NCBI GenBank assembly: GCA_965218975.1
Contig: OZ244717.1
Coordinates: 416,001 to 480,000 of the forward strand
Direction of reading: 5' to 3'
Source of the DNA: Candidatus Oxydemutatoraceae bacterium
GTDB taxonomy: Bacteria > Pseudomonadota > Gammaproteobacteria > Poriferisulfidales > Oxydemutatoraceae
Length of the DNA stretch: 64,000 nt
Shown here one piece after another: positions 8,949 through 61,596 of the stretch (positions within the stretch are counted from its first letter, which is position 1; every line of letters starts with the position of its first letter). The translations under genes were made by a program, and so were the position numbers. The notes beneath the pieces were generated by a model. The model saw nothing but the letters and a program-made list of their open reading frames with translations. It did not search any database and was not told the origin of the DNA.

Positions 8949-9326
8949 TGTATAGTGCCAGATACATATGGGACTCACGGCTTAATCTAAATCGGTTTGC
9001 CGTTTCAGGGGAAACTACAGACCGGATGTCACCGGGCGCATTCTTGGCAGCCCTAAGCTCTTCGAACCGATGAAACCGTTTTGTGTTTGTTGTCGGATTG
9101 TTGGCAAAGTACATGTCGTCCATGACGAGACTTGGTGCTGTCAATGAACCCCAGCCCCGACATCCTTGTCGGGTCGTTCGCCGCTGAAAACCAATTGGTT
9201 TTCCGGGCGCGTCTCACCCGGCACCGCCCTCATGCCGGCAACGGACCGAAAGCACCGGCCCGAATGTTACTGCCGAACACTTCTCTCGAAGCGCTTCAAA
9301 AATCCCATTTAGGGTGGCATCGTACA
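8949..9326 (+). mobile_element. Non-autonomous IS481-family derivative (MITE-like) with both ends
   Basis: Runs 5' TGTATAGTGCCAGATACATATGGGA to TCCCATTTAGGGTGGCATCGTACA 3' (imperfect IR, TGT..ACA ends). Carries the palindromic module. No TSD seen. Confidence 0.8.
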
Positions 9327-9331
9327 AATGA

Positions 9332-9360
9332 TAGCCGAATCCGAGCAATTTGGTTATAAT
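9332..9360 (+). promoter_or_regulatory. Sigma70-type promoter of ssrA
   Basis: TAGCCG-N17-TATAAT, about 23 nt upstream of the tmRNA. Confidence 0.7.
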
Positions 9361-9382
9361 CCCTCGCGCTGATTAATTTCTC

Positions 9383-9751
9383 TGGGGCGATCTGGCTTCG
9401 ACGGAGATCACAAAACTTGAGGCGCATGCCGAGCCGGCAGTAAAACTCGTAAAACTGGACTGCAAAATATTAGTTGCCAACGAAGACAACTACGCACTGG
9501 CGGCCTAAGAAACCGTCCATGCCTCTTATGAATTAGGTGCTTGTGCCGGTTCAATAAGGGTCGTTTACACAAGATCGCAGCAAGATAGTCTGTGTTCTTG
9601 CTGTTAAACCTGGTAACAGGTTAATACAGAATCGTTGATGACAGCTCTTGTTTGGTCAGAAGTTATCAATTAAATTAAAGACGAAACTAAGCATGTAGGG
9701 CCAACAGCGGCGGATTTTCGGACGCGGGTTCAATTCCCGCCGCCTCCACCA
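9383..9751 (+). ncRNA. ssrA: tmRNA; tag peptide ANEDNYALAA* at 9476-9508
   Basis: 5' GGGGCGATCTGGCTTCGACGG, GCATGCCGAG, the tag ORF, and a 3' T-arm plus acceptor GCGGGTTCAATTCCCGCCGCCTCCACCA. Confidence 0.97.
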
Positions 9752-9862
9752 CTGAGATTTCCTATAAAGTCCGATAGCGTCTGAATATCCTTTATAAAAC
9801 AATATTCTAAGGTGTTTTATTGTCTTATAGTGTATAAAGCTATGTTGTAAAATCCAGCAGTT

Positions 9863-9915
9863 TTAGTAATACTCTTAGTAATACAGCACATGTTTACTTA
9901 GGAGCGTATTACTAA
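9863..9915. promoter_or_regulatory. Putative integrase arm-type binding sites
   Basis: TTAGTAATAC at 9863 and 9875, with the inverted GTATTACTAA at 9906. Confidence 0.55.
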
Positions 9916-9916
9916 A

Positions 9917-11158
9917 ATGCCACGAATAACCAAACCCCTCTGTGAAACAGAGGTCAAGCACGCCAAGCCCAAAGGCACTACTTATAACCTTGCAGATGGA
10001 AAAGGCCTATACCTCAAGATCAAGCCCAGCGGCTATAAGGTTTGGATATTCAACTATTACCGGCCATTCACCAAAAAACGAACTGTTGACACTCTTGGCG
10101 AATACCCCGTTATAACTCTCGCCAAGGCACGTTCTAGACGCAATGAATACTTAAAGCTGCTTGCTGATGATATCGACCCGATCGAGCACAAGCTTGAAAA
10201 GAAGAGAATTCATACAGAGAAAAGCAAAAATACACTGGAAGCTGTGACCAGTTGATGGATCAAGGTCAAAAGCAGCCAAGTCTCTGAGGCACATGCAAAA
10301 GATATCTACAGATCACTGGAACTGCATATCTTTCCCGCGCTCGGCAAATTGCCCCTTCACAAAATCAGAGCAAAGCAAGTTATTGAAGTATTAGAGCCTT
10401 TAGCGGCGAAAGGCTCCCTGGAAACTGTAAAACGTTTAATCCAGAGATTAAATGAAATCATGGTCTACGCAGTAAATACAGACCTGGTGGCTACGAACTG
10501 CCTTTCAGGAGTAAGCAAAGCATTTGCTTCACCGGAAAAAAATCACATGCCTACCCTGAAACCGGAGCAATTACCGGAATTAATGAGAGCCATTGCCAAT
10601 GCCAGTATCAAGAAAACTACTCGATGCCTGATCGAGTGGCAATTGCACACAATGACAAGGCCTGGCGAGGCCGCCGGTACAAGATGGGAAGAAATAGACT
10701 TTGAGAAAAAATTGTGGGCTATCCCTGCCATGCGCATGAAAAAGAAACGCCCTCATAAAGTGCCCCTCTCGCCACAAACACTGGTTTTGCTTGAAGTAAT
10801 GAAACCGGTTAGCGCGAACAGAGCATATGTATTTCCTGTGGACAGAAACCCTAGAACCCACACCAACCCAGCAACTGCCAACATGGCGCTCAAAAGAATG
10901 GGGTACGGTCGCTTGTTAGTTGCTCATGGTCTCAGAGCTCTAGCCAGCACTACGTTGAATGAGCAAGGCTTTGATCCTGATACCATTGAGTCGGCATTAG
11001 CCCATTCGGACAAAAACGACGTCAGAGACGCATACAACCATGCTGAATATCTGGAACGTAGGAGAGTCATGATGTGCTGGTGGTCTGAACATATAGAAGC
11101 TGCTGCAGAAGGAAACCTCAGCCTTTCAGGCACTAGAAAATTAAGAGCCGTCAACTGA
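9917..11158 (+). pseudogene. intA: P4/CP4-57-like tyrosine integrase with one in-frame TGA (10253-10255)
   Basis: Arm-binding domain (LADGKGLYL, LGEYPVITL), RPGE, HGLR, LAH and AYNHAEY. Both ORF halves are in the same frame. Confidence 0.88.
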
Positions 11159-11346
11159 TCCTGCTCTTCAGCATGGTGTCTGGATTCAATCCACTGGATC
11201 GCTGTATTTTCATGCTGCATGCGCTGGTGAATTCAAACTAAAATTTTTGCATTCAGTCTCAAGTTATACCGCATAAGTATCGACAAAACAAAAATATACA
11301 TGCTAAAGAGATTAGATCTCATTTATAGGGTATAAAGGCTAGAAAC

Positions 11347-12150
11347 ATGACTTCTAGGATGCGCAACACTCTGTATCAATTCCACAGTGATTCTGGTGCA
11401 CCATTGGATGCTCATTTCGAGATACAAGAAGGGCAACTAGTTCTACATTCGCGTGGTGGCGCTATTGGTACACCGCATGCAAGAAATACAGAATACGGCC
11501 AAGCATTACGTATTCTCCTTACAAGAATTGAGAAATTTAACCTGAAGCTAGCTGGTGTGTGGGTTGACAGCAAGCGGGTCCAAAGTCTACCAATGGAGAA
11601 GAGGTCAATACTCAATCCCGAAGACACTAGGAACTCACCTTCTGTGTTGTTTACGATGTTATCGAACAGAATGGGCGTTGTAGGCCGCGGACCAAATGTT
11701 CGAAGCAAATTTGGAAATTCAAACAAAAAACTTCGTTTTTCTTTTGCAGAAAATCTGTCTGATGAGAAAATCACTCTGATTGCAGGTTGGGGAGAAAACA
11801 ACAAGGACGCACTGATCTACAAAGCAGTTCCTCTATGCCCCAATGATCAAGAATGGGCCGAAGGGCGACCAAGGCTTGTAACACACCTCAGACGTGAACG
11901 TGGTTCGGGGCTCGCCTTGGCAAAAAAGGCGAGATTTAAATTCGAGCATGGTCGGTTGTTTTGTGAACGCTGTGGACTAGACCCTGCTAAAGTTTATGGC
12001 TCTGATGTCGGTGATGCATGCATTGAAGTGCATCACAAACTGCCAGTAGCCAACATGCTGACAGTGCACAAGACAAGACTGGAAGATCTAGTGTGCTTAT
12101 GCGCAAACTGTCACCGAATCACTCATCGTGAACTTCAGAATGAAGATTAA
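11347..12150 (+). CDS. HNH endonuclease with an uncharacterised N-terminal domain
   Basis: C-terminal CERCG..CIEVHH..CLCANCHR. Confidence 0.85.
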   Translation: MTSRMRNTLYQFHSDSGAPLDAHFEIQEGQLVLHSRGGAIGTPHARNTEYGQALRILLTRIEKFNLKLAGVWVDSKRVQSLPMEKRSILNPEDTRNSPSVLFTMLSNRMGVVGRGPNVRSKFGNSNKKLRFSFAENLSDEKITLIAGWGENNKDALIYKAVPLCPNDQEWAEGRPRLVTHLRRERGSGLALAKKARFKFEHGRLFCERCGLDPAKVYGSDVGDACIEVHHKLPVANMLTVHKTRLEDLVCLCANCHRITHRELQNED

Positions 12151-12194
12151 CTAAGTCCGAGTGCCGTGAAGCGACCTACTAGTAGAATTCGCAG

Positions 12195-13325
12195 ATGCAA
12201 AAAACGCAAGCTTATCCCGTCGTAGATATTTTTGCTGGCCCAGGCGGGCTTGGTGAAGGTTTTTCGTCTGTACTTGGCGAAAACGATCATCTCCGTTTCC
12301 GTAATATCATCTCTATTGAGCACGACAAATTCTCTTACAAAGCACTACATCTTAGACACTTCTACCGTTCATTTTTCCCTAGCAATATTCCTGAAGAGTA
12401 TTACGGTTATTTGCGAGGCGACATAGAAGCCGATGAGTTATTCTGCCTATATCCGGCTCAGTTTGAAGCAGCTAATAAAAGCGTATTGAAAATTTCCCTT
12501 GGCCGCCGGCCAGTGCTTGACTTCGTCGGCAGCGCCACGATCAAGGCGTCTCCTGCGACTGTCGCGGCAGTGATGCGCGCGACGCTGGACTTTGACCTCG
12601 CCGCTCAACGAACGTGCCCGACATGGACCGATGCGCTGCGGTTGTTCATCCGACAGGCCGACGAGGCCGGTGTCTTCGTCATGGTAAGCGGCGTCGTGAT
12701 GAGCAACAACCACCGCCGCCTCAATCCGGCCGAGTTTCGCGGCTTCGCGTTGTCCGACTCCCTGGCGCCGCTGATCTTTGTCAACGGCGCCGACACCAAA
12801 GCAGCACAGATGTTCACGCTTGCTCATGAACTCGCGCACATCTGGCTGGGAGCGTCGGCTCTATCGGACATTGGCGCCGTGCCGATGCGGGGCTTCCAAC
12901 AAGAGGAAGTGTGGTGCAACGCGGTAGCGGCGGAGCTCCTCGTGCCGCTTGACGCATTGCGAGCGGAGCTGCTAGCCGACGAGCCCGTAGCCGATGCCCT
13001 GCCACGGCTGGCACGCACCTTCAAAGTCAGCTCATTGGTTATTCTGCGGCGCTTACTGGATGCGAACTGGCTAACGCGCGAGCGTTTCGACGATGCTTGG
13101 GCACAAGATATCAAGCGCCTGCGGACCTTCGTTCAAGGCGGCAGCGGGGGCGGCGCTTTCTATCGCACGACGCTGGCGCGTGTGAGCCGGCGGTTCGCCC
13201 GCGCATTGGTTATGAGCACGCTTGAAGGGCAGACCCTCTATCGGGACGCCTTTCGCATGCTCGGCGTGTCTAGGACTGAGACCTTCAACAATCTCGGGCA
13301 CGAAGCCGGGGTGAAGCTGAGGTGA
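12195..13325 (+). CDS. Chimeric ORF: DNA C5-methyltransferase N-terminus fused to an ImmA/IrrE-family metallopeptidase C-terminus
   Basis: VVDIFAGPGGLGEGF (MTase motif I) but no PC motif, then FTLAHELAH..EVWCNAVAAELL. Composition shifts from AT-rich to GC-rich near 12500. Confidence 0.8.
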   Translation: MQKTQAYPVVDIFAGPGGLGEGFSSVLGENDHLRFRNIISIEHDKFSYKALHLRHFYRSFFPSNIPEEYYGYLRGDIEADELFCLYPAQFEAANKSVLKISLGRRPVLDFVGSATIKASPATVAAVMRATLDFDLAAQRTCPTWTDALRLFIRQADEAGVFVMVSGVVMSNNHRRLNPAEFRGFALSDSLAPLIFVNGADTKAAQMFTLAHELAHIWLGASALSDIGAVPMRGFQQEEVWCNAVAAELLVPLDALRAELLADEPVADALPRLARTFKVSSLVILRRLLDANWLTRERFDDAWAQDIKRLRTFVQGGSGGGAFYRTTLARVSRRFARALVMSTLEGQTLYRDAFRMLGVSRTETFNNLGHEAGVKLR

Positions 13326-13329
13326 TGAG

Positions 13330-13836: not shown

Positions 13837-13846
13837 TGGCTGGTTT

Positions 13847-15763
13847 CTTGACTTCGTAGGTTTTGACCTAGGGCAAGAAATAAATCCCTTATTTATTATA
13901 GAGTTAGCAAGCCTCCGCCGAAAAACCCCGTTGTAGTGCCCTCAGGCTTGTTTTATCTTGGATTTTGGGTTATCATTCGGGTCTATGTACCTGCGTGAAA
14001 AATATGATCCCGAACGCGGCCGCACTCGCTTGCAGATTGTGCGCTCCGTGCGCACTGCCGATGGTCCCCGTCAGCGTGTGGTGCGGCATATCGGCACTGC
14101 CGACAGTCCCGAGCAGCTTGCATCTTTGCGCAAGCTCGGCGAGGTCACCTTGGAAGAGCTGCGCCAAGCCGGCACGGCACAGCAGTCGCTGTTCACACCG
14201 AAGCAGTACGCGGACCTGGCAGCTAAGGCACGGCGTGCGCCGCGTCCGGCGTGCTTCGGGGCAGATTTGTCCGAATATCGTGAGGAAGCGCGGCTGATGC
14301 TTGGGGTGCGCGAAGCGTTCGCACAGATTTATTCGCACATCGGATGGAACCAGGTGTTGGGCGCGCGCCGGACCGCAGCCAACCGCATCCTGCGCGAGCT
14401 GGTACTGACACGTATCGCACAGCCCCAGAGCAAGCGTGCCACAGTGTGCGGATTGGAACGAAGCAGCGGCGTTTCGCTCAATCTCGACCGGGTTTACCAG
14501 ACTATGGACCACCTTGAGGAGGCAGTGATCGCACGCATCCGGGAACAGTCTCATCAGGCGGCACAGAAGTTGTATGATCAGCCCCTCAAGGTGTTCTTCT
14601 TTGATTGCACGACCCTGTACTTCGAGAGCGAGCAAGAGGACCCGTTGCGCGCAAAGGGCTACAGCAAGGACGGCAAGCCGCACCGCTGCCAGGTGTTGCT
14701 CGCACTGATGACGACCTGCGACGGTCTGCCGGTAGACTACGCATTGTTGCCGGGCAACACCTTTGAGGGCAAGACCTTGATGCAGGCGGTGACAACCCTG
14801 CGCCGGCGACATCCCGGTGCCGTATTCACGGTGGTAGCCGATGCGGCGATGCTAAGCCGCGAGAACCAGGCATTCCTGCAGGAGCAGGGCTTGGCCTATT
14901 TGCTCGGCTATCGTCTCAAGTCGGCCCCAGCCAAGATCAAGCTGCAGGCCCTCAGTACAGCAGACGATCAAGGCTGGCTCAAAACGCAGGACCTGCGTTA
15001 CCGGATGATTCGCGCCGGCGTGCACGCAAGGATCAAGAAGTTCGGGAACGCATATTGGCACAGTTGCGCCGGAAGTATCAACGCAGCGAGCGCCCGGCAG
15101 GTTTCGTGGCGCGCGGCTATGCCTGTTACTTAAGCTTTCCTGCAAAGGGCCGGGTTAAGATTGATGCGGCTAAGGCAGCCGATGCGGCGCGTTGGGACGG
15201 CCTGCGCGCAATCATCGCGTACAGCAACGAGGAGACGGCGCCAAAGGAGTTGCTGTTGCAGTACCGTCGGTTGTGGGAAGTAGAACATTGCCAGAACCCA
15301 AAGCGGATGCACCAACAAGCATGACCTTTGCATCCGCCCGATCTTTCACTGGAAGCCGCGGCGCATCCGGGCGCATCCGGGCGCATATTGCGATCTGCTA
15401 CATGGCCTTCTGCTGCTTGCAGCAACTGCGCCGATGGCTTAAGGCGCTGGGCTTTCCGATGAGTGCGGAGCGGACCCGGCGCGAGCTCGACACCTTGCAG
15501 TTGAGCATCTTGGTACATACCGACACACAGAAGCGGTATGCGATGCCGAGCCGCGCGAGCGCGGACGCCAACAGGATCTACCGTAGTGTCGGGCTGAAAT
15601 GGGACGAAGCGCCGTTCCCGCTTCCCGGCAAGTCACGTCCTGGGGGAAGCTGAGCGCAGAGGGCTACAAACAACACCGTAATGTAGTGCCCTTGAGAATC
15701 ATGAAGGCAATGGCACAATCATTCCTGGGCAATCACTTACGAGCCAAAACCTACGAAGTCAAG
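13847..15763 (+). mobile_element. IS1634-family copy 2 with a frameshifted transposase
   Basis: Same IRs as copy 1. Deletion near 15010 and indels near 15290-15380. No flanking TSD. Confidence 0.9.
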
Positions 15764-22253: not shown

Positions 22254-22780
22254 CTTGACTTCGTAGGCTTTGACTCGTAAGTGATTGATATTATTGCCCT
22301 TAGGATTCTCAAGGGCACTACATTACGGTGTTGTTTGTAACCCTCTGCGCTCAGCTTCCTCCAGGGCGTGACTTGTTGGGAAGCGGGAACGGAGCTTCGT
22401 TCCATTTCAGGCCTATGCTACGGTAGGTCCTGTTGGCGTCCGCACTCGCACGGCTCGGCATCGCATACCGCTCCTGTGTGTCGGTACGTACCAAGATGCT
22501 CAACTGCAAGGCGTTGAGCTCGCGTCGGACCCGCTCCGCGCTCATCGGGAAGCCCAGCGCCTTGAGCCGCCGGCGCAACTGCTGCAAACAGCAGAAGGCC
22601 ATGTAGCAGACCGCAATGCGCGCGCGGATGCGCCGCAGCTTCCAGTGAAAGATCGGGCGGATGCGCAGATCATGTTTGTCGGTGCGAAAGCAATGTTCTA
22701 CTTCCCATAACCGGCGATATTGCAACAGCAACTCCTGCGGTGTCATCTCTTCGTTGCCTTGATTTCGTAGGTTTTAACCT
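22254..22780 (-). mobile_element. IS1634 3' fragment (reverse) plus an isolated IR stub at 22758-22780
   Basis: Right IR at 22254 and the transposase C-terminus. CTTGATTTCGTAGGTTTTAACCT abuts the pyrR stop. Confidence 0.85.
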
Positions 22781-26959: not shown

Positions 26960-27311
26960 TATCGTGTGCCTGATTGTGGATACATCGAATAGAATGCTAC
27001 CGTCCCTACCCGCTCAGCACCAAAGAATTATGCAAACCGCAGACACAAGTATAAACACTTCAAAGCACAATCCGGAGCATTGGGTCGCCCTTGATACTAG
27101 CGTGCGCTTTCAGCGCGAGGATGCGCGCCATTCTTAAACACTATTGATATCGATTCATGCCTTGAGTTGCAACGGCAACCGATAGCGGGTGAATCACATT
27201 TGAAGCGGTATGACATGTGCCGACCGCATACCGGTTTAGGTTCAACAGCCCCGTGCCGAATGTTGATTCCAAACAACCCTAAAAAAATCCGGAATGTATT
27301 GGTATCGTACA
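26960..27311 (+). mobile_element. IS481-family fragments ending in ..GGTATCGTACA
   Basis: HWVALDTSVR and RPHTGLG remnants. Confidence 0.6.
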
Positions 27312-27639: not shown

Positions 27640-27902
27640 TATAACCGCGATAACGCTACCGCCGGCGGCACAAAGTACTGCAACTGAGATCGAATGCATC
27701 CAAAGTTGCATCCGGCCCGTGTTTATCCCAAAATGAGGGCATCATATTTCTGTTGAAGCTTAGAGCGCTCATGAGCCTCTATCTTTGAAGTTAAACAGGC
27801 TCATATAGAAACCTTTGATGCGGTGGCCGATGTGTTGATATTGCATATCGGTCACCTTTTGGAGTCGTGCCGTGAGTCCCATATGTATCCGGCACTATAC
27901 GC
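27640..27902 (-). mobile_element. IS481-family left-end fragment
   Basis: Reverse strand reads GTATAGTGCCGGATACATATGGGACTC..MQYQHIGHRIKGFY. Confidence 0.75.
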
Positions 27903-33806: not shown

Positions 33807-34274
33807 TTACTCAAGAAGACTTCTCAGCATCCATGCATTTTTTTCATGCGCGGTCATGCGTTGTGTCAGTAAATCAACGGTCGGTTCATCATTTGCTTCT
33901 ATAGCGATAGGCAAGCTTTTGCGAGCGGTTTTAATTACCGCTTCCTGCCCGCTGATCAGCTGATTAATCATTGCTTTAGCATTGGGAACACGGGTTTCCT
34001 CCTTGATACTGGTCAATTTACTGAATTGTTGATAAGAACCGGGGGCCGCTACCCCTAAAGCGCGAATTCTTTCGGCAATTTGATCAACTGCCATGGCAAG
34101 TTCGTTGTATTCCTCCTCAAATAAAAGATGCAGCGTGTTGAACATAGGGCCAGTAACATTCCAGTGGAAGTTATGCGTTTTTAAATAGAGGGTATAGGAA
34201 TCGGCGAGTAAGTGAGCAAGCTGTTGAGCGATGCCTTTACGTTGTTTTTCTGGTATGCCAATATTGATTTTCAT
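33807..34274 (-). CDS. dps: Dps DNA protection protein
   Basis: [20 protein letters not shown] and HEKNAWML. Confidence 0.96.
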
Positions 34275-34351
34275 AGTTGTTTTTCTATAAGCTTGTTGTC
34301 CGAATTTAAGTTTTGATAGTATATATCATTAGTAGTATATATCAATTCAAG

Positions 34352-34625
34352 TGTGCACGATGCCACCCTAAATAGGATTTTTGAAGTGCTTCGAGGGAAG
34401 CGTTCGACAGTAACATTCGGATCGGTGCTTTCTGTCCGCTGCCGACATGAGGACGGTGTAGCTTATACCAGGCTAAATACTCCCATAATCGGTCATTGAA
34501 TGCTTCCGTATCAGTGAATAGCAGGTCTTCCGCATGATCGATACACTCTTCTTGGACCGTACGGTTGAAGCGTTTAATGTGCGCATTCATTTTCGGATAC
34601 TTGGGATAGGTCAGCCACTGCTCAT
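34352..34625 (-). mobile_element. IS481-family 3' fragment without the palindromic insert
   Basis: TYPKYPKMNAHIKRFNRTVQEE..WEYLAWYKLHRPH..LGWHR. Confidence 0.85.
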
Positions 34626-36116: not shown

Positions 36117-38570
<2,454 letters not shown>

Positions 38571-38575
38571 ATAAT

Positions 38576-39300
38576 TGTACGATTCCACCTTAAATGGGAT
38601 TTTTGAAGGGCTTCGGGGGAAACGTTCGGCAGTAACATTCGGATCGGTGCTTTCTGTCCGTTGCCGGCATGAGAGCGGTGCAGGGTGAGACGCGCCACTG
38701 AAAACCGATCGGTTTTCAGTGGCGAACGACCCAACAAGGACGTCGGGGCTGGCGCTCATTGACAGAACCGAGTCTCGTTATGAACGACAGGCACTTTGCT
38801 AGATTGCGGCAGTACCGACACTATACACACCAGGGTCAGGCGCAGGAATGCGGCTGCGTTGCGGCTGTTACAGCGATTGGTTGCTACTGCTATTGCCATT
38901 CAGGTATAGACATCAATGGCCGTTAAGACGTAGCGGCGCACTCCGTGCTGATCACGCACAATCGTATCCAGGGCGATGCAATGCCCTGGATACTGTGCTT
39001 TGAAGTGTTTCGGCTTGCGTGCCCTGCAACGGCGCTTAAACGGTCGTTTTGTTTGTCCTTTGGCATTCAGCCGCTGCGGAATACAGCGCATTTTATCCGG
39101 CGCATCTGCGGTCAGGCGCTTTGCCGCGGTCATGCAAGGCGCTGAGCCCAGTGCGGCAATAACGTTAGCGCCAGCGGTACAAAGTGTTGCAACCGACCTT
39201 GAATGCGTTATAGAGCATCATGTTTTTGTTGAGCCATTGTGTTCATAATAGCTTCTATTTTTGAAGTGTACATATCCAGTACATTACCGGGTTTTTTTGG
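38576..39300 (-). mobile_element. Degenerate IS481-family element (transposase fragments, palindromic module, right end)
   Basis: PGHCIALDTIVR..YVLTAIDVYT and LHRSHAGNGQKAP. Ends ..GGAATCGTACA at 38576. Confidence 0.8.
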
Positions 39301-39570: not shown

Positions 39571-40113
39571 TGTATTAGATCCATAACATTTGGTACTCCG
39601 GGTGGTGAGTCAGGAGCGATTGTATCGGGAGATTGCAACCCCAGTGAATGATGGGGCGTTGGGTGTTGTAAAACACCGGCCATTGCGCCAATTCCCAATC
39701 AAAACAGAGGCCACATCAATGAACAGGAGCCTCTCGCAAAGAGCTGCGCGGTTGTCCGTGAATGATTCCTGCAAGCTACGGTTGAAGCGCTCGACGTGCG
39801 CGTTCATCTTTGGCGACTTCGGATAGGTCCACCAGTGGGTGGTCCGGCGCTGTTTCAACTCGGTCTCGAAGTCCTTCATAAACTCCGAGCCGTTGTCGGA
39901 CAAGATATAGCCGATCGGTTTCGGCACCAGTTCTGCCTTATCGCAGGCAGCGGCCATGCCATGGCTTTCCTGGAAGGTGAGAATTTTGAGTCTTTGTTTT
40001 GCATCGTAAGTCATAGTATCCCAACTATGCCTAATTTCAGCAACCCGGTAAAATCCCCGGATTCGATAGCCTATATGTCAGATTTGCAAGGCTTCTGAGC
40101 TTATGTATACACA
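39571..40113 (-). mobile_element. Internally deleted IS481-family element (second subfamily)
   Basis: TGT..ACA termini, ILSDNGSEF and YPKSPKMNAHVERFNRSLQE. Confidence 0.8.
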
Positions 40114-42945: not shown

Positions 42946-43192
42946 AAATGTAAAACTAGGTCTATTCGTTTACAACGAAGATTTTTTTGCGACTCTATTA
43001 GGGTAGAAAGTTTAGCCGATGTTTTGATTAAGAGTCGTTATGTAATAAAAAAGCAGCAGAAAATAAGAAAGAAAAAAACTTCAATTTTTATAACCGAAGC
43101 GACACTATAAAAAGGTGTTGATAAACCGAAAGTTTGTTTTGAACATTTTGTACAGGTACTGCTCACTGGCAGCAGTAAAGTCTTTGAGCTGA

Positions 43193-43469
43193 TGAGACTG
43201 TTTTGTGTTTGTTGCCGGATTTTCGGCGGATTGTGCCGGATTATCGGCAAAGTGCCTGTCACCCATGACGAGACTTGGTTCTGTCAATGAGCACTAGACC
43301 CGACATCCTTGTCGGGTCGTTAGCCGCTGAAAACCGATCGGTTTTCCGGGCGCGTCTCACCCTGCACCGTCCTCATGCCGGCAACGGGCAGAAAGCACCG
43401 ATCCGAATGTTACTGCCGAACGCTTCCCTCGAAGCCCTTTAAAAATCCCATTTAGGGTGGCATCGTACA
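43193..43469 (+). mobile_element. Palindromic module plus IS481 right end
   Basis: TGAGACTGTTTTG..GCGTCTCA, then ..TTTAGGGTGGCATCGTACA. Confidence 0.85.
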
Positions 43470-43474
43470 ACTAA

Positions 43475-43503
43475 TTGACAAAACGGTTAAAAAGTCATAT
43501 TTT
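43475..43503 (+). promoter_or_regulatory. Sigma70 promoter of rpmH
   Basis: TTGACA-N17-TATTTT. Confidence 0.7.
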
Positions 43504-43541
43504 ACCCCACAAGAGAGCGGTGAATTTTGATTGCATATCTA

Positions 43542-43676
43542 ATGAAAAGAACCTTTCAACCAAGCAAAGTTAAACGGAAACGGGCTCATGGATTTCGTGC
43601 ACGGATGCGTACCTGTAGCGGGCGTGCAATTCTAACTGCACGCCGGAGAAAGGGGCGGGCGCGCCTATCCGCATAG
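43542..43676 (+). CDS. rpmH: 50S ribosomal protein L34 (not in the ORF track)
   Basis: [44 protein letters not shown]. Confidence 0.98.
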
Positions 43677-43763
43677 CAGTCGTTAATTATTATTGTGTAC
43701 ATAGGTTATCGGGATGCCTACCCAAGTATGGAGCGATACCGACAAGCTATGTGATGTATCTGT

Positions 43764-44174
43764 GTGTCCGGTAGAGTGGCACACTTATTTCCTGCTTCAG
43801 CCTACCGGTTACGGAAACACAGAGAATTTGATCGAGTGCTATATAACTCACAATCAGTGCGGATTTCACACCGAACGGCTATTATTTATGCATGCCCGAA
43901 TGCTTATCAATACCCGCGGTTGGGAATAACAGTTTCGCGCAAAGCTGCAAAAAAAGCTGCCGCGCGTAATCGAATCAAGCGTCTTATCCGTGTCAGTTTC
44001 ATGCGGAACCGCCAACGCCTTCTGTGTGTTGACACAGTTGTGATTTGCCGGCACGGTAGCGCCACACGAACATCTGTCGAGTGGCTCCATACGCTTGAAC
44101 AAATGTGGATAAAAGTAGCGAAGGGAGTGCAACAGCAATGTGTGTTTCCGCCGCCGACAGGAAACAGTCTGTAA
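43764..44174 (+). CDS. rnpA: RNase P protein component
   Basis: RLRKHREF, RLGITVSRK and ARNRIKRLIR. Confidence 0.93.
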   Translation: MSGRVAHLFPASAYRLRKHREFDRVLYNSQSVRISHRTAIIYACPNAYQYPRLGITVSRKAAKKAAARNRIKRLIRVSFMRNRQRLLCVDTVVICRHGSATRTSVEWLHTLEQMWIKVAKGVQQQCVFPPPTGNSL

Positions 44175-44176
44175 TT

Positions 44177-45856
44177 ATGGATCAAGCACGGCCGCTTCTG
44201 TACGTTTCATTAGGGTTTGTATTGCTATTGTTGTGGCAAAGCTGGACAACGTTTACCGATCCCACACCGTCGCCGATCTCTCCGGTAACCCCATCCGATT
44301 CATCGAACAAACCACAGAAATTTCCTGAAGATTTACCGGCATCAGTAACATCCGAACAGCCGCGCCCCGCAGAATTAGAGCAAAACGTTACGCAGCAAGT
44401 TGATTCTCCGACAATAGAGGTACGGACGGATGTTTTATCCATGACTATCAGCACTCGTGGCGGTGATGTCATCCGTGCCGATTTAAGCAAGATACCTGTG
44501 CACCTCGGGGACCCGACCCCGTATCATTTGTTCCATTATGACGCTAAAGGCAGTTATTTGATGCAAGCGGGGCTGCTTCATGACCATTTGCCAGACATGT
44601 CCGGCACTTTGGCAGATTACGCCCCGTCGCATCACGCGAGATATAACAGCGCTTCGGCCCACTATCAAATGACCTCAGAGCAAGACGAACTACACATTCC
44701 GCTCGTTTGGCAAGGTCAAGGGATTGAGGTAAAAAAAGTATTTATATTTCGCCGAGGGAGATATTTAATTGATATTGAGCATTGGGTACGCAACAACCGG
44801 GAGCGCGCATGGGTCGGACGTCAATATACACAATTGCGCCGCAGCGACGAGGCGCCAGAAAATGAGAATCGGTTTCTCTATACATTCACGGGTGCAGCGT
44901 ACTATGACGGCACATACACCAAGCAAGGCTTTGCCGATATTGTAGAAGAACCAATGTCACAAGCAATACACGGCGGTTGGGCGGCAATGCTTGAACATTA
45001 CTTCGTTAGTGCCGTCGTCCCTGATCAAACACAGGCACATGATTATTATTCAAAAAGCGTTTCCGGCAATGCCGGTGCTGAGTATATCATCGGCATTCGT
45101 TCTCCGGCTTTGACTATCGCGCCCTGGCAGGAAGAGAGATTTCACACGCAATTGTACGTCGGACCGAAACTGCAGAGAAAGTTGGAACATATTGCACCTG
45201 GTCTCGAACTGACCACAGACTATGGTATTTTCACGGTAATTTCCAAACCATTATTTTGGCTGTTGGAGCGTATTTACCAATACTTAAGGAATTGGGGTTG
45301 GTCGATCATTATGTTGACGCTGTTAATTAAGTTGGTGTTTTATAAACTCTCGGAAGTTGGTTATCGTTCTATGGCACGAATGCGAAAATTTCAACCGCAA
45401 CTGACACGGCTACGCGAACGCTATAAAGATGACCGCCAACGAATGAATCAGGAAATGATGGGGCTTTATCGCAAAGAAAAAATTAATCCGCTTGGCGGAT
45501 GTTTTCCAATCTTAGTGCAAATTCCGGTTTTCATCGCGCTATATTGGGTTCTTTTAGAGAGCGTCGAGTTACGCCAAGCACCGTTCGTTCTCTGGATTCA
45601 AGACCTTTCCGCCAAAGACCCTTATTTTGTTTTACCGGTATTAATGGGAATCAGTATGTTTTTGCAAAACCGCTTAAATCCGACACCGCCGGATCCGATA
45701 CAAGCAAAAGTTATGATGTTCTTACCGTTCATTTTCACTGTCTTTTTTGCTTTCTTCCCTGCGGGGTTGGTACTGTACTGGCTTGCCAACAATGTGTTGT
45801 CCATCGCGCAACAATGGATGATTACGCGACGGATCGAGCGCGCCGTCGTCAGCTAG
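44177..45856 (+). CDS. yidC: Membrane protein insertase YidC
   Basis: DYG, NWGWSI, NPLGGC and GLVLYW. Confidence 0.97.
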   Translation: MDQARPLLYVSLGFVLLLLWQSWTTFTDPTPSPISPVTPSDSSNKPQKFPEDLPASVTSEQPRPAELEQNVTQQVDSPTIEVRTDVLSMTISTRGGDVIRADLSKIPVHLGDPTPYHLFHYDAKGSYLMQAGLLHDHLPDMSGTLADYAPSHHARYNSASAHYQMTSEQDELHIPLVWQGQGIEVKKVFIFRRGRYLIDIEHWVRNNRERAWVGRQYTQLRRSDEAPENENRFLYTFTGAAYYDGTYTKQGFADIVEEPMSQAIHGGWAAMLEHYFVSAVVPDQTQAHDYYSKSVSGNAGAEYIIGIRSPALTIAPWQEERFHTQLYVGPKLQRKLEHIAPGLELTTDYGIFTVISKPLFWLLERIYQYLRNWGWSIIMLTLLIKLVFYKLSEVGYRSMARMRKFQPQLTRLRERYKDDRQRMNQEMMGLYRKEKINPLGGCFPILVQIPVFIALYWVLLESVELRQAPFVLWIQDLSAKDPYFVLPVLMGISMFLQNRLNPTPPDPIQAKVMMFLPFIFTVFFAFFPAGLVLYWLANNVLSIAQQWMITRRIERAVVS

Positions 45857-45868
45857 CGGAGATTTTCG

Positions 45869-47236
45869 GTGCGTTATGCATCAAACGACACAATTGCGGC
45901 AGTCGCCACCCCAGCCGGCAAAGGCGGGATTGGCATCATTCGAGTCAGCGGTTTATCGGCGGAGCCTCTTTTGCGACAAATCATTGGAAAGACTATTACG
46001 CCGCGCCGAGCATGTTTCACATGTTTTTTTGATCACGATCGCCAGGTTATTGACGAAGGTATCGTGTTATGGTTTAAAGGCCCGGCTAGTTTTACCGGTG
46101 AAGATCTGTTTGAATTGCATGCTCACGGCAGTCCGGTAGTGCTGGATTTGCTATTGCAAACATTGATCAAAGCCGGCGCGCGGTTGGCGCAGCCCGGTGA
46201 ATTTAGCCGGCGTGCATTTGAAAACAATAAGTACGATTTATCTCAGTTGGAAGCAGTTTCGGAACTGATTCACAGCACAGGCGTACAAGCCGCGCGTAGT
46301 GCGCAGCGTGTATTGCAGGGTGAATTTTCGGCGCGAATCCATGCGGTGGTTTCAGCGCTCCGTCACTTACGAGTATCGGTTGAGGCGGCAATAGATTTTG
46401 CCGATGAAGACATTGAACATGCGACAACAAAAGATTGGCAGGCACAGCTTCAAACTACTTGTGATCAGCTTACACAACTCCAACAATCCGCCACTGAAGG
46501 CGCGCGGTTAAGCGCCGGTGCGCAAGTTGTCATTATCGGCTGCCCGAACGTGGGTAAATCTAGCTTGTTGAATCGATTGGCACAATGTGATGCGGCAATT
46601 GTCAGTGATATCGCCGGTACCACCCGCGATGTTTTAACAACGGCAATATCCGTCAGAGGGTTGACGTTGTCAATCATGGATACCGCTGGGCTGCGTGACA
46701 AGAAGGCTGTAACAGGCGACCCAATCGAAAGAGAAGGTATGCGACGTGCTCGAGCGGCAATGGCGACGGCAGATGCAGCGCTTATTGTAATAGATGCAAG
46801 CATTGATTACTGCGGGCAAGAACGCACGCTGGCAAACGATCTTTCCGCTAGCGATGTCCCATGTTTATGGGTTTTAAATAAAATTGATTTGATTACGCCG
46901 ACACAACGCACCGCATTGCTTGAGAAGGTAAAAACGTGCACGGTTTTAGTCTCGGCAAAAACCGGTGCCGGGATAGGTGAACTAGGCCAACGTTTAATCA
47001 AGGAATTGGGATTGACGGATAGCTGCGAAGATACACTCATAGCTCGTCGTCGCCACTTGATAGCCTTAAATCAAGCAGCAACCCATCTGCGCGAAGCCAA
47101 AGGAGTCGTCAGCTCAAACGAGCTATTTGCCGAAGAGTTGCGTCTGGCTCAGACCGCACTTGAAATAATTACCGGCGAAACGAGCAACGAGGACCTGCTT
47201 GAGGAGATTTTTGCCACATTTTGCATAGGAAAGTGA
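45869..47236 (+). CDS. mnmE: tRNA modification GTPase MnmE
   Basis: SFTGED, GCPNVGKSS, GTTRD, DTAG and FCIGK. Confidence 0.98.
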   Translation: MRYASNDTIAAVATPAGKGGIGIIRVSGLSAEPLLRQIIGKTITPRRACFTCFFDHDRQVIDEGIVLWFKGPASFTGEDLFELHAHGSPVVLDLLLQTLIKAGARLAQPGEFSRRAFENNKYDLSQLEAVSELIHSTGVQAARSAQRVLQGEFSARIHAVVSALRHLRVSVEAAIDFADEDIEHATTKDWQAQLQTTCDQLTQLQQSATEGARLSAGAQVVIIGCPNVGKSSLLNRLAQCDAAIVSDIAGTTRDVLTTAISVRGLTLSIMDTAGLRDKKAVTGDPIEREGMRRARAAMATADAALIVIDASIDYCGQERTLANDLSASDVPCLWVLNKIDLITPTQRTALLEKVKTCTVLVSAKTGAGIGELGQRLIKELGLTDSCEDTLIARRRHLIALNQAATHLREAKGVVSSNELFAEELRLAQTALEIITGETSNEDLLEEIFATFCIGK

Positions 47237-56824: not shown

Positions 56825-57284
56825 GTGGTTATGGTTATCTGCCGTTATCGTTGTGCTTGATCAGTGGAGTAAAGCAGTCGCCGCCGGGCAACTGATTCTA
56901 CATCAGCCGGTTGCCGTACTGCCGCAGCTGAATTTTATGCTGGTTTACAATGCGGGCGCATCGTTCGGATTTTTAAGTTCCGCAGGCGGCTGGCAACGCT
57001 GGTTTCTTATTACACTCGCCTTGGCGGTGAGCGGGTATTTGTATATGTGGCTGAAGAAGCTGACTGCCGAAGCGGTCATCATGGCGGCGGGAATTGCTTT
57101 GATTATCGGGGGGGCGATCGGGAATGTGATTGACCGCGTGGTTTATGGCTACGTTATTGACTTTATTGATATATACTACGGTGCTTACCATTGGCCGGTC
57201 TTTAATCTTGCCGATAGCGTAATTACACTAGGCGCCGTGATGATTGTAATGACAGCATTGTTTGATAGTAGGGTGACTTCATGA
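56817..57284 (+). CDS. lspA: Lipoprotein signal peptidase
   Basis: NAGASFG, GNVIDR, VIDF and FNLAD. Confidence 0.96.
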
Positions 57285-58231
57285 TGGTTATCTTGGCGAA
57301 TCCCAGAGGATTTTGCGCCGGCGTAGACCGCGCGATTGAAATTGTTGAGCGTGCGGTGGCAATATTTGGGATGCCGGTTTATGTACGCCACGAAGTTGTG
57401 CACAACAAATATGTGGTTGCGCAACTACGTGACAAAGGCGTGGTGTTTGTCAAAGAGTTAGATGAGATTCCCGACGAAGCGGTAGTCATTTTTAGCGCGC
57501 ATGGTGTCGCGCCGCAGGTGCGGCATGATGCTGAGAAACGACGCCTGCGCGTGCTGGATGCCACCTGCCCGTTAGTAACAAAAGTACATTTGGAAGTGAT
57601 TCAATACGCTCGTCAAAGACGCGAAGTGATTTTGATCGGACACGCCGGGCATCCTGAAGTCTTGGGCACGATGGGACAATACTATGACCATATAGCGACC
57701 GAAGAAGGAAGGATGCGCCTAGTTGAGTCAATTGATGATGCTCAAACGCTACAAGTAAAGGAGCCTCAGCAGCTCGCGCTGGTTACGCAAACCACGTTGT
57801 CGGTTGATGATACGCGTGAAATTATCGCCGTACTGCAAGCACGGTTTCCACAAATGGTTGTGCCGCGCAAAAAGGATATTTGTTATGCCACGCAAAACCG
57901 CCAGGATGCGGTGAAGAAATTGACTGAAACATGCGATTTAATTTTAATTGTCGGTTCTCCGAATAGCTCTAACTCAAATCGATTACGCGAAATTGCCGCG
58001 CGTGAAAAGATTGAATCGTATCTGATTGAAAATGCGAAAGCCATCTCGCCCGCTTGGCTGAAGGGCAAGCGATGCATTGGTGTTTCAGCAGGAGCGTCGG
58101 CTCCTGAAACATTGTTGCTACAGGTTGTTGATACGCTCAAAGAACAAGGCGCCGACGACATTATTGAACAGGAAGGCACGATAGAAGATGTGACTTTTTC
58201 ATTGCCGCGCGTGTTACGTGCGGTCCTGTAA
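57281..58231 (+). CDS. ispH: 4-hydroxy-3-methylbut-2-enyl diphosphate reductase
   Basis: [19 protein letters not shown] and SSNS. Confidence 0.97.
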
Positions 58232-58440
58232 AAAAGTAATTGCGGCGATTTAATTTGGGGCTCATTTTCCCTCTGCTTGTATCGTTTCTGTTCTCATGCG
58301 AGTAAAGTAACGGAAGAACGAGAGATAATCAATCTTAAAAATCCGCTATAGCTATATATCGGTCACGCACAGAGATTTTCTTACAATATCGGAGATAGTG
58401 TATAATCTGTCGAGGATTTAACTGAGAAGAGAGAAATGCA

Positions 58441-59475
58441 ATGCCGCCAAAAATAGGAGGAGCGTCCCCTCCGGTACCTTTACCGGATTCACAATCAAGG
58501 GCTTCTCAGCATCAAACATCCGAGGTAACCGGCAGTCTTGGAGGTTTAAAAGTGAAAGTCGGAACAAACGATACCGGGTCGGGAGTTCCTAGCACTCACC
58601 TACTGCAGGGGTCTACGCACGGAGGATTGGGAAACGCGACCCTCGGCGCGGAACAATTTATTAATCGCCCCTCTGGCAACATCCGCCAAGGGGATACACG
58701 TAAGGCCGGTCGTTTGGCGCGTGTCGGGAGATTTTTATCTTGGATGAAACGAGGAATGGTGAAACACTTTTTTAAGCAGCGAAATAATGTGGCACAGCAT
58801 ACGCCGCAAGCAGGAAGCTTGTCTGCACCTACTCCGGCGGATATGACTGTGTTGTTTGCGCAAAGCGCACGCCAAGGAATTGATGCCACCAAGAATATTT
58901 TGAATCAACAGGTGGTAGGTGAGCAACACGATACCGCAGCGGTGCTAAATTTGTTGGTTGGCGGAGACGGAGGCTTGCGCCGTGCGATGACGGCATTGTT
59001 AAATATTTGCAAACATTTGAAACCGGAGCAATCTCCACCGGAATCTTTACCGGGAACTCCTGAACAGTGGCGGGCGCAGACCGAAGCAATATCGCAGATG
59101 GCGCAACAAATCGGGAGGGCCGAATTTAGTGAGAATGTGCAGGGAGAGTTTACTCAGTACGGCACTCCAAGTAACAACCCTTTCACTGCTGTCGCCGACC
59201 GCTACCCGCAACTGGATCATTCGGTACGAAATTGGCTTGCGGAAGGAGTTGACTTGCTTGATCAATTACTTACCGCTCAAGAACGGGCAGGCAAAGGCTT
59301 GCCGCCGTTAACAAGTAAAGAATTGGCTGAATTGAAAGAACAGGTTGAAAAATTTACTAATCCCGGGTTGCGTGACGGGCAAACTGAAACACCCGCCTTC
59401 ACATCGAAAATGGGAATGGACGATGCGGTTGAAAAGATCGATAAAGTTTATCAGGGTCATAAAACGCAGACGTGA
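58441..59475 (+). CDS. Putative type III secreted effector with a YopE/ExoS/SptP-like Rho-GAP domain
   Basis: S/P/G-rich N-terminus, GDGGLRRAMTAL (arginine-finger motif, R180), FTQYGT (QWGT-like), and an adjacent chaperone gene. Confidence 0.72.
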   Translation: MPPKIGGASPPVPLPDSQSRASQHQTSEVTGSLGGLKVKVGTNDTGSGVPSTHLLQGSTHGGLGNATLGAEQFINRPSGNIRQGDTRKAGRLARVGRFLSWMKRGMVKHFFKQRNNVAQHTPQAGSLSAPTPADMTVLFAQSARQGIDATKNILNQQVVGEQHDTAAVLNLLVGGDGGLRRAMTALLNICKHLKPEQSPPESLPGTPEQWRAQTEAISQMAQQIGRAEFSENVQGEFTQYGTPSNNPFTAVADRYPQLDHSVRNWLAEGVDLLDQLLTAQERAGKGLPPLTSKELAELKEQVEKFTNPGLRDGQTETPAFTSKMGMDDAVEKIDKVYQGHKTQT

Positions 59476-59557
59476 GGAGCATCCGGTGAAACGTAGAGAT
59501 TATTAATCCGACGTAATATGTTAAAAATCAACCAAAAACTTGGGGAAAAGCGGCGCG

Positions 59558-60025
59558 ATGAGCAAATTTGAAACTCTATTGGAAGGGCTTTCTCTACAAA
59601 TAGGCATCCCTAAAGAACAGGTTTGCGGAGAGGGGCAGAGAACGGTCAATCTAATTTTTGATGAGAAAACCGGCGTGGAAATAAGCAATGATGCCGTCAA
59701 CGGAAAAATTCGCTTATCTTCCAAATTGTTTCAGGTGAATGATGAAGAGGATATGGGGGCAATCGCACTTTTGCTCACACAAGCAAATTTTGAGCAGAAA
59801 GGGCTTTACGGCGCACATCTTGCTATGAGCGAGGAAGGGCTGATTGTCTTAATGCGCCGTGTGTCTTTGCAATCGCTTAATGGCACCGCTTTCGGCGATC
59901 TGATAAAAGAGTTTGTTAATGCTGCGGCGCAGTGGTCGGATTCGGTCACGCTAATGTCTAAGCTATTGAAGTCTGATCTCAATCACACTGCCGGCGGAGA
60001 ATCGGAAGTGAGGATGAAGGTCTGA
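59558..60025 (+). CDS. CesT/SycE/SicP-like class I T3SS chaperone
   Basis: 155 aa and acidic, with LLTQANF..GAHLAM and a C-terminal amphipathic helix FGDLIKEFVNAAAQW. Confidence 0.8.
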   Translation: MSKFETLLEGLSLQIGIPKEQVCGEGQRTVNLIFDEKTGVEISNDAVNGKIRLSSKLFQVNDEEDMGAIALLLTQANFEQKGLYGAHLAMSEEGLIVLMRRVSLQSLNGTAFGDLIKEFVNAAAQWSDSVTLMSKLLKSDLNHTAGGESEVRMKV

Positions 60026-60232
60026 TAGATACATGCAGTGGGTTGCATATCTTGGCAATTACATACGTAAATCGTATCTAGAGCGTTGATAATGTTGCAA
60101 TGAGATCGGAAGGCTTGGGTTCGGGCAAAAGTAAAATGGCCTGATTTCATCGCGTGCTAACCGCTATGTTTCCGGTCGTTTTCCTTATCTTCTCACAACT
60201 TCTCAGCACGCTTTGCATTCAGGACACGATTT

Positions 60233-60818
60233 CTTAACTTCGTAGGTTTTGGCTCGTAGGTGATTGAAATTACTGCCCTCATAATTCTCAGGGGCACTAC
60301 ATCACGGTGTTGTTTGCAACCCTATCGCACTCAGATTCCTCCAGGACGTAGCTTGCTCGGAAGTGGGCAACGGAGCTTCGTTCCATTTCAGGCCGACGCT
60401 ACGGTAGACCTTGTTGGCGTCTGCGCTCGCGCGGCTCGGCATCGCATACCGCTCCTATGTGTCGGTATGTACCAAGATGCTCAACTGCAAGGTGTCCAGC
60501 TCGCGCCGGGTCTGCTCCGTACTCATCGGGAAGCCCAGCGCCTTGAGCCGCTTGGCGCAGCTGCTGCGAGCAGCAGAAGGCCATGTAGCAGATCACAATG
60601 TGCGCGCGGATGCGTCGCGCCTTCCAGTGAAAGATCAGGCGGATGCGCAGGTCATGCTTGTTGGTGCGAAAGCAATGTTCTACTTCCCATAACTGGCGAT
60701 ATTGCAACAGCAACTCCTGCGGTGCCATCTCCTTCGTTGCCGTGCGCGAGGATTGCGTGCAGACCGTCCCAACGCGCCGCATTCGCCACCTTGACCGTAT
60801 CAATCTCGACCCGGCCCG
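60233..60818 (-). mobile_element. IS1634 3' fragment, degenerate
   Basis: IR variant CTTAACTTCGTAGGTTTTGG and YRQLWEVEHCFRTNKHDL. Confidence 0.85.
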
Positions 60819-61359
60819 GTGCAGGGTGAGACGCGTCCGGAAACCTGTCTGCGTGCACTGCACAGGCAGGACCGATCGGTTTTCCGAGCGCGTCTCACCC
60901 TGACAGACGGTGGTAGCGAGTTTCAAGGACAGTTTGCACAGCTCATCCGGGAGTCACCCGGAATTGAGCAGTGGCTAACTTATCCCAAGTGTCCGAAAAT
61001 GAACGCGCACATCAAGCGTTTTAACCGTACGGTCCAGGAGGATTGTGTTGATCATGCGGAAGACCTGCTATTCACCGATACGGAAGCATTCAATGACCGG
61101 TTATGAAACCGTTTTGTGTTTGTTGCCGGATTTTCGGCAAAGTGCTTATCGTCCATGGCGAGACTTGGTTCTATGAATGAACCCCGGCCCCGACGTCCTT
61201 GTCGGGTCGTTCGCCGCTGAAAACCGATCGCTTTTCCGGGCGCGTCTCACCTTGCACCGCCCTCATGCCGGCAACGGACAGAAAGCACCGATCCGAATGT
61301 TACTGCCGAACGCTTCTCCCGAAGCGCTTCAAAAATCCCATTTAGGGTGGCATCGTACA
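60819..61359 (+). mobile_element. IS481-family 3' half with the palindromic module inserted
   Basis: TDGGSEF, YPKCPKMNAHIKRFNRTVQED, the module at 61084-61248, and the end ..GCATCGTACA at 61359. Confidence 0.85.
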
Positions 61360-61596
61360 GACCCTTGTGCGAGCTGGACAAGAAAGTTTATGATGCGACC
61401 GAACCGAAGGAGGAAACCGTTAATCCATGAAACCCGAACCGACGTGTGTCAACTAATCTTTATAATTCCCCACCGATTGGTCGGGTAACCATTTTCGTTA
61501 TAATATAAAAGGTTTCTTAATCAATTCCCTGTTTGTCGCATTTGCACCTTCCGCTGGAGTGCATATTCATTTCGACAGGGCAACCCGGCATATGCT

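Follow-up and report, generated by a model that had tools for sequence, protein, structure and literature searches.

To our knowledge, the group formed by TnGBS, ISLre2 and ISKra4 is the only one among bacterial transposons that has been described as choosing promoters, and the means by which its members do so are still unclear. These elements (p-MULT 3 and 4), of which TnGBS are integrative conjugative elements and ISLre2 and ISKra4 insertion sequences, place themselves upstream of sigmaA/sigma70 promoters, 15-17 bp from the -35 hexamer; their orientation is conserved, the right inverted repeat lies beside the promoter and the gene behind it is left intact (PMC3942029). Here we describe an insertion sequence (IS) resembling IS481, whose remnants stand upstream of predicted promoters in 64,000 nucleotides (nt) of DNA from a Candidatus Oxydemutatoraceae bacterium (contig OZ244717.1, positions 416,001-480,000). 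This stretch, which we call the window, is part of a single 2.08-Mb contig, 47.7% G+C. A full-text literature search, with ISfinder/TnPedia and many journals lying outside it, returned no report of promoter targeting by IS481-type elements, and a prior description is possible.

The initial annotation of the window had proposed that this element docks at a fixed distance upstream of sigma70 promoters. We are now confident that a clade of IS481-like elements, when active, makes a 5-bp staggered cut directly upstream of the -35 hexamer of sigma70-type promoters and inserts in one orientation, the copies in this genome being its dead remains. What places the copies there is oriented, promoter-targeted transposition and not selection alone.

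The right end, GGTGGMATCGTACA, has six matches in the window at no more than two mismatches, where 0.65 are expected, and none of 100 shuffles reached six. Four are exact (ends at 9326, 38576 on the minus strand, 43469 and 61359) and one is a one-mismatch variant (end at 34354); the last, with two mismatches, lies at 36319 inside gyrB and was set aside as a chance match. Each end is followed by five unrelated bases and then by two hexamers, resembling a -35 and a -10, that are 17 or 18 bases apart. The four main sites read as the initial annotation had described them. Its fifth, upstream of dps, holds in part, as a -10-like box stands at the expected place, but alignment puts the end at 34354 and not at 34352, and the -35 is poor. 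The ends, the promoters and the genes behind them are given below.

8949..9326, plus strand: dead IS481-like copy with an internal deletion, left end from 8949 (TGTATAGTGCC..), right end to 9326 (..GGCATCGTACA)
9327..9360, plus strand: predicted ssrA promoter, AATGA, -35 TAGCCG at 9332-9337, 17-nt spacer, -10 TATAAT at 9355-9360
9383..9751, plus strand: ssrA, the transfer-messenger RNA (tmRNA) gene, downstream of the docked promoter
34354..34624, minus strand: right-end fragment facing dps, variant end ..CGTGCA
34320..34353, minus strand: weak promoter match upstream of dps, CACTT, poor -35 GAATTG, -10 TATATA at 34320-34325 (+29 to +34)
33807-34274: dps, a ferritin-like open reading frame (ORF)
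38576..39266, minus strand: decayed copy facing gyrB, right end at 38576, with an extra fragment at 39766-39837
38542..38575, minus strand: predicted gyrB promoter, ATTAT, -35 TAGTAA at 38565-38570, 17-nt spacer, -10 TATGAT at 38542-38547
36117-38546: gyrB, as the listed ORF
43168..43469, plus strand: right-end fragment facing rpmH
43470..43503, plus strand: predicted rpmH promoter, ACTAA, -35 TTGACA at 43475-43480, 17-nt spacer, -10 TATTTT at 43498-43503
within 43527-43676: rpmH (L34 ORF)
60871..61359, plus strand: decayed copy with a C-terminal remnant of the transposase, right end at 61359
61360..61394, plus strand: predicted promoter of tandem paralogues, GACCC, -35 TTGTGC at 61365-61370, 18-nt spacer, -10 TATGAT at 61389-61394
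61597-62502 and 62547-63473: the tandem paralogues behind the 61359 end

To examine the distance genome-wide, right ends were collected by BLAST with the last 60 nt of the element. This gave 89 ends, of which four were dropped because their flanks duplicate those of another copy, leaving 85. A promoter match had to agree with TTGACA/TATAAT at 8 or more of 12 positions, to show nAnnnT as its -10 and to have 16-18 nt between the hexamers. Such a match, with its -35 at exactly offset 5, was found at 36 of the 85 non-redundant ends, a single peak of the kind the initial annotation had expected downstream of the ends. Offsets 3, 4, 6 and 7 gave 3, 6, 15 and 4 matches, those at 4 and 6 partly overlapping offset 5 through the spacer tolerance, and every other offset between 0 and 59 gave 0-3; altogether 44 ends matched at offsets 4-6. 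The base composition of 82 ends followed the same pattern, with T at +6 (60 ends), T at +7 (42) and G at +8 (42), then T at +29 (42), A at +30 (42) and T at +34 (47). No left end in this genome had a promoter at offset 5 (0/60), and there was no peak in either reading direction. A same-strand gene start lay within 300 nt of 44 of the 85 right ends; for left ends read outward the figure was 24 of 60, and for random positions it was 20%. This test overlooks RNA genes and short genes and gives modest support.

Perfect 5-bp duplications identical to the spacer were present in five of 41 left/right pairs, against approximately 0.04 expected by chance. Because the perfect direct repeat of these pairs is the very sequence between right end and -35, the 5-nt spacer is the target-site duplication. 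This goes beyond the initial annotation, as does the finding that the copies in this genome are all dead.

Judged by their sequence, the repeats are the remains of an IS from a divergent IS481-like clade, all of them dead and rearranged internally. The IS481-like identity first assigned to them is borne out by the transposase fragments of this genome, for which NF033577 (IS481) is the best family (E 1.4e-21, 77 and 75 bits) alongside an rve match (E 5.7e-7), and by terminal inverted repeats of the form TGTA(T/C)A...CGTACA. The left end, TGTA(T/C)AGTGCCAGATACAT.., is an imperfect inverted repeat of the right end and comes in three subfamilies. Copies in the window are short (approximately 270-775 bp), and longer ones elsewhere in the genome (1.2-2.0 kb) bear pieces of the transposase gene. 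Every copy inspected in this genome was broken, and no open frame with an rve match exceeded 246 amino acids. The elements here are fossils, and the living examples are found in related sponge-associated bacteria.

Transposases 40-51% identical to the fragment occur in ten genomes of the same family and are intact and multi-copy in six. The intact relatives measure 1,081-1,141 bp and, because copies within a genome are 94-100% identical, they have moved recently. The same clade, at 41-43% identity, is present in metagenome-assembled genomes (MAGs) of Nitrospirales with 23 and 7 copies. These, the Uhrbacteria copies and others were found by a pattern scan of a species-representative genome collection, which gave further copies in other Patescibacteria, Binatia, Ca. 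Poriferihabitaceae and Ca. Spongiihabitans and returned the same loci under the MAG titles Candidatus Porisulfidus, Ca. Oxydemutator and Ca. Oxydemutatoraceae. At E <= 1e-20 the clade has at least 912 database relatives.

For the pooled counts we used 69 copies (68 unique) from seven other genomes, namely of the same family plus two Nitrospirales MAGs. Seven loci of genome G012, two of G004, locus L024 (G011) and the truncated L069 and L079 (G015) stood outside the end analysis, as BLAST to the reference element gave no ends for them, and six G006 copies, whose boundaries were set by eye, were kept out of the pool. Perfect 5-bp duplications flank 47 of the 63 copies with both ends. A promoter match stands at offset 5 in 40 of 68, and offsets outside 4-6 have two at most. 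The columns (n = 68) are sharp: T at +6 (61), T at +7 (48) and G at +8 (46); T at +26 (32) and G at +27 (35), the TG of an extended -10; and T at +29 (46), A at +30 (45) and T at +34 (50). Left ends again show no promoter at offset 5 (0/63). That the spacing reflects the choice of target rather than selection, as the initial annotation had supposed, is upheld by near-identical intact copies with perfect 5-bp duplications at the same position. Recently active relatives in at least two phyla keep to this rule. The six G006 copies (L028, L036 and L075-L078) belong to a distant second lineage with ends TGCAAAAG..TTGTACA, and inspection by eye, with boundaries shifted by 1-2 nt, gives 5-bp duplications in five of six, followed by TTGCAA, TTGACA and the like. 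Also by eye, all three Uhrbacteria copies read end, 5 nt, TTGAC, and single or few copies in another Patescibacteria record, Harrisonbacteria, Binatia and a third Nitrospirales MAG read end, 5 nt, TTGAC(A/G/T).

Flanks of four of the eight unique insertions in genome G003 were searched for in four genomes of the same genus as G003, and all four insertions had uninterrupted orthologous sites in G007, G015 or G017. The empty sites hold one copy of the 5 nt, followed directly by the same -35. At L034 the filled site of G003 reads ..AAGGTTCCCC, element, TCCCC, TTGCAC-17-TATAAT, and the empty site in G007, G015 and G017 reads ..AAGGTTTTCCC, TTGCAC-17-TATAAT; at L043 the sequence ..AAAGG TTTCAT-17-TATAAT is uninterrupted in the three sister genomes. 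L045 and L042 have empty counterparts too, but these lie in repeated sequence and their orthology is less certain. Since the empty sites carry the promoters, the promoters are host DNA older than the insertion, as had been proposed at the outset, and the element duplicates the 5 bp abutting the -35. In G011 the L034 promoter also has the end of a related element beside it, there with other bases in the 5-nt spacer.

Two promoters, one at 1255776 in this genome and one at locus L065 of G015, have each been hit twice. In tandem arrangements (G000:C1 1255760-1255790 and 1862860-1862880 in this genome; locus L065 of G015) a right end is followed by 5-6 nt and the left end of the next copy, whose right end is again 5 nt from the -35. 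Because the same promoter was hit twice although its upstream DNA was by then IS DNA, recognition needs only the downstream side.

As to what the target consists of, TAnnnT stands 16-18 nt after an IS-adjacent TTG in 20 of 25 cases in this genome and 31 of 35 in the relatives. The background is far lower, at 641 of 13,840 (4.6%) for non-coding TTG in this genome and 86 of 1,528 (5.6%) for non-coding TTGACA-like sites (>=5/6). Even ends without TTG at +6 to +8 have a correctly placed TAnnnT in 27 of 60 cases here and 23 of 33 in the relatives, compared with 4.4% of random non-coding positions. A target of TTG only cannot explain these data, because the -10 enrichment at element ends is so far above background, and the comparison shows that a site needs a whole promoter, with a -10 at promoter spacing. 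The position of insertion is set from the -35 hexamer. Among the 40 of 68 relatives' sites in which both hexamers are well defined, the -35 lies at offset 5 in 34, with spacers of 16, 17 and 18 nt in 6, 22 and 6 of them; the other six are at offset 6, five with a 16-nt spacer and one with an 18-nt spacer. In this genome the -35 lies at offset 5 in 30 of the 41 sites with both hexamers well defined.

Two other ideas were rejected. One holds that the promoter mimics the element's own end, TGTACA matching TTGACA at four of six positions; since nothing like a -10 stands at the proper spacing in the repeats, it cannot explain the -10 enrichment. The other has the right repeat supplying an UP element, but its A/T tracts, at approximately -56 to -69, are too far upstream, and the repeats of the relatives lack them.

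Intact relatives encode single transposase ORFs of 346-373 amino acids, and one long ORF without the programmed frameshift of the IS3 type is a defining feature of IS481. Against NF033577 they score 193.4 and 161.4 bits, under the curated cut-off of 224, with IS3 next at 124.9 and 91.6. Such scores suggest that the elements form a divergent branch of the IS481 family or a sister clade to it, or else that the cut-off is too strict for them. In the intact relatives Pfam finds rve, rve_3 and helix-turn-helix domains and nothing else, and thus no Mutator-type transposase domain. Across 77 sequences D181, D239 and E274 are invariant or nearly so, and the 35 residues that separate D239 from E274 give a DD(35)E arrangement. 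The predicted structure (mean predicted local distance difference test score, pLDDT, of 86.6) has retroviral intasomes, IstA and TnsB as its top structural matches. An N-terminal extension of approximately 37 residues (MQIxHxGYRIxGF..) lies outside the IS481 model, is shared across phyla and is of low confidence in the predicted structure; it is a candidate determinant of specificity. When the transposase (residues 1-343, 12-row alignment) was modelled together with region 4 of sigma70 (86 residues, 5-row alignment), the predicted complex scored 0.01, a result with no bearing on binding either way.

In all intact relatives (e.g., L025:1003-2058, L028:994-2091) the transposase ORF leaves the element before it meets a stop codon. 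The frame reads ..W-H-R-T through the right repeat into the target, and the same frame is seen in the window at 9312-9326. With a 5-nt offset, the TGA of TTGACA (+7 to +9) and the TAA of TATAAT (+31 to +33) are in frame with the transposase. Of 68 copies, 19 have their first in-frame stop at +7 and 11 have it at +31; a stop is reached within 33 nt by 47 in the transposase frame, versus 30 and 26 in the other two.

In our account, active elements of this clade, with a single-ORF DDE transposase, an rve core and TGTA..TACA inverted repeats, make a 5-bp staggered cut that abuts the -35 on its upstream side, the duplicated bases lying at roughly -40 to -36. Their orientation is always the same, so that the right repeat and the 3' end of the transposase gene come to lie beside the promoter. 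The core promoter and the gene thereby stay intact, giving a safe harbour and hence copies before the essential genes ssrA, gyrB and rpmH. The transposase may locate its site via the promoter-bound RNA polymerase holoenzyme, touching sigma region 4 or the DNA that it bends, and we put the chances of such guidance as roughly balanced. Recognition of the holoenzyme or sigma is the simplest account, because the target has three promoter modules yet is measured from the -35. Cut sites at approximately -40 to -36 adjoin the DNA where sigma region 4 holds and bends the -35, and class II activators and the alpha C-terminal domain sit there. The fuller reading, in which a clade widespread in Gammaproteobacteria, Nitrospirota, Binatia and candidate phyla is guided by the holoenzyme, most likely by sigma70 region 4 on the -35, and integrates just upstream, is offered tentatively, its chances falling a little short of even. 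The promoter hexamers would then even serve the element by ending its transposase gene with a stop codon.

Guidance by the holoenzyme has to be weighed above all against a transposase that reads the DNA itself, with one of its helix-turn-helix domains recognising the TTGACA-like hexamer, perhaps for its likeness to the element's terminal TGTACA, and cutting 5 bp upstream with no host protein. We think this rather unlikely. It agrees with a position set from the -35 whatever the spacer length, with T at +6 as the strongest column (61/68), with targets that have TTGACA but no properly spaced -10 (L045, Uhrbacteria) and with the four of six positions at which the element's ends match TTGACA; insertion beside end-like sequences is known for IS911 and IS30. 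Yet reading of the hexamer alone leaves unexplained why a -10 at 16-18 nt, even an extended -10 TG, is far commoner here than elsewhere (31/35 versus 4.6-5.6%), why sites without TTG still carry a correctly placed -10 (23/33 and 27/60) and why the 1,528 non-coding and 8,924 coding TTGACA-like sites (>=5/6) of this genome have almost no copies.

Two readings dispense with target choice altogether. If insertion were random or weakly biased, selection against disruption of genes and promoters could leave copies upstream of promoters, and in small, gene-dense genomes (approximately 85% long open frames) the survivors must be intergenic. We consider this most improbable, as selection cannot yield a peak at a single nucleotide (36/85 and 40/68 at offset 5), one fixed orientation or repeated hits at the identical position of one promoter, and near-identical copies (96-100%) already obey the rule. 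A comparably slight chance attaches to host intergenic mosaic repeats of the BIME/BOX type, or to promoters carried by the repeat itself. Such repeats would fit the short, non-coding window copies full of 98-nt hairpin units, but not the IS481-type transposase remnants of longer copies, the terminal inverted repeats and the 5-bp duplications; moreover, the sequences after the ends are unrelated to each other except for the hexamers, and the promoter is present without the element at the empty sites of sister species.

Several points weigh against promoter-targeted insertion as we describe it. All promoters are sequence predictions, and a search of RNA runs gave none that covers positions 43300-46000 of the window. 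No active copy of the element was found in this genome, so the direct proof comes from relatives, and none of the 30 relatives searched is of the same genus, only the tmRNA gene having aligned. A good promoter match at offsets 4-6 is lacking at 41 of 85 right ends, and 36 of 41 pairs have no duplication, the copies in this genome being old and rearranged. The -10 background was drawn from this genome only. There are also exceptions to the need for a whole promoter: some recent insertions, such as L045 of G003, adjoin TTGACA with no -10 at 17 nt, and the Uhrbacteria copies have a clear TTGAC but weak -10 boxes. At sites of the L045 type a -35 is thus enough on some occasions, an observation as compatible with direct DNA reading as with a sigma tether.

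The remaining copies and fragments in the window are the following.

192..966, plus strand: copy without the terminal left repeat, with three 98-nt hairpin units at 491-836
1061..1226, plus strand: left-end fragment of the third subfamily (TGTACGTGTCCGGATACAT..)
27644..27900, minus strand: left-end fragment, with an extra fragment at 27053-27180 on the plus strand

The right repeat of the 192..966 copy is cut off at approximately 965 by the left end of a second IS481-like type, TGCATAAGCTCAGAAAC... This second lineage, at approximately 965-1060 of the window, has a left end of the form TGCA(T/A)AAGCTCAGA(A/C)AC..TTGGCACTC. The 98-nt unit, which has two small hairpins, forms tandem arrays inside dead elements, interrupts the transposase gene at several places and is sometimes in frame with the remaining pieces of the transposase ORF; in the window the arrays are at 491-836, 9070-9219, 43213-43362 and 61103-61252. 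Elsewhere in the genome, three element ends (G000:C1 842098, 880374 and 1839328) have identical downstream flanks, TTGACT-17-CTAAAG.., and because of this identity a larger segment including the element end must be triplicated. These flanks were considered as rRNA promoters and rejected, as they gave no Rfam match and the downstream ORFs resemble a repeat protein.

Regarding the neighbouring genes, the true start of gyrB is probably further downstream, because the ATG of the listed ORF falls within the proposed -10. The mature tmRNA begins 24 nt downstream of the predicted ssrA -10, compared with approximately 10-12 nt in seven family relatives, and the ssrA promoters of the relatives (L013-L019) could not be aligned with that of the window. 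The paralogues behind the 61359 end are 80-93% identical in DNA (61579-62489 against 62529-63442), and a weak ABC1 kinase-like Pfam match was obtained for the second only. The window also holds a duplicate of approximately 1.8 kb (1711-3542 and 13846-15669), 90-96% identical and approximately 12.1 kb apart, with a long ORF at 1823-3526 that is split in the second copy (13958-15133 and 15192-15653). A repeat of approximately 365 nt (22385-22749 and 60366-60731), 89-92% identical and 38 kb apart, overlaps ORFs on both strands and is not part of the IS family studied here.

This habit of insertion explains how an IS can reach massive numbers in small symbiont genomes while essential genes survive. 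For annotators, an element end followed by 5 nt and a -35 is a marker of promoters in unculturable organisms. With a single protein and 1.1 kb, it is also a system in which tethering of a transposase by RNA polymerase or sigma can be tested, and it may serve as a tool for the insertion of cargo beside active promoters.

The comparison with TnGBS and ISLre2 that the initial annotation drew is apt (PMC3942029). Like TnGBS, ISLre2 and ISKra4, the element sits upstream of promoters in a fixed orientation, with the right repeat beside the promoter and the gene intact. Their insertions lie 15-17 bp from the -35 (PMC3942029), whereas the distance here is 5 bp, with the 5-bp duplication abutting the -35. 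Their transposase is Mutator-like and the one described here is of the rve, retroviral integrase-like type; their hosts are mainly Firmicutes, while ours are Gammaproteobacteria, Nitrospirota and candidate-phyla bacteria. Because the transposases are unrelated, the resemblance is convergent. Promoter targeting has thus evolved at least twice, the second time in an unrelated transposase family with a sharper rule and a very wide host range.

With IS481, the prototype from Bordetella pertussis, the element shares a DDE transposase encoded in one ORF (N-terminal helix-turn-helix, rve core), a length of approximately 1.1 kb, ends of the form TGT..ACA and short duplications. It differs in its sub-cut-off score, the N-terminal extension of approximately 37 residues, the lack of a stop codon in the element and its promoter target. 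The target of IS481 has been reported as NCTAGN, and the IS481 family has a range of target duplication lengths.

Retroviral integrases have the same catalytic fold, to judge from the structural model with its top matches to intasomes, IstA and TnsB, and several enzymes of this type use host or accessory proteins for the choice of target. As with the integrases of human immunodeficiency virus (HIV) and deltaretroviruses and with Ty3, landing sites are set by the transcription machinery and not by a long DNA sequence. HIV integrase is tethered by LEDGF and deltaretrovirus integrase by B56, and Ty3 inserts at RNA polymerase III start sites. In those systems the tethering proteins have been identified, whereas here we infer a tether. 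If it is true, bacteria would have their own form of LEDGF- or TFIIIB-tethered integration, evolved independently of TnGBS.

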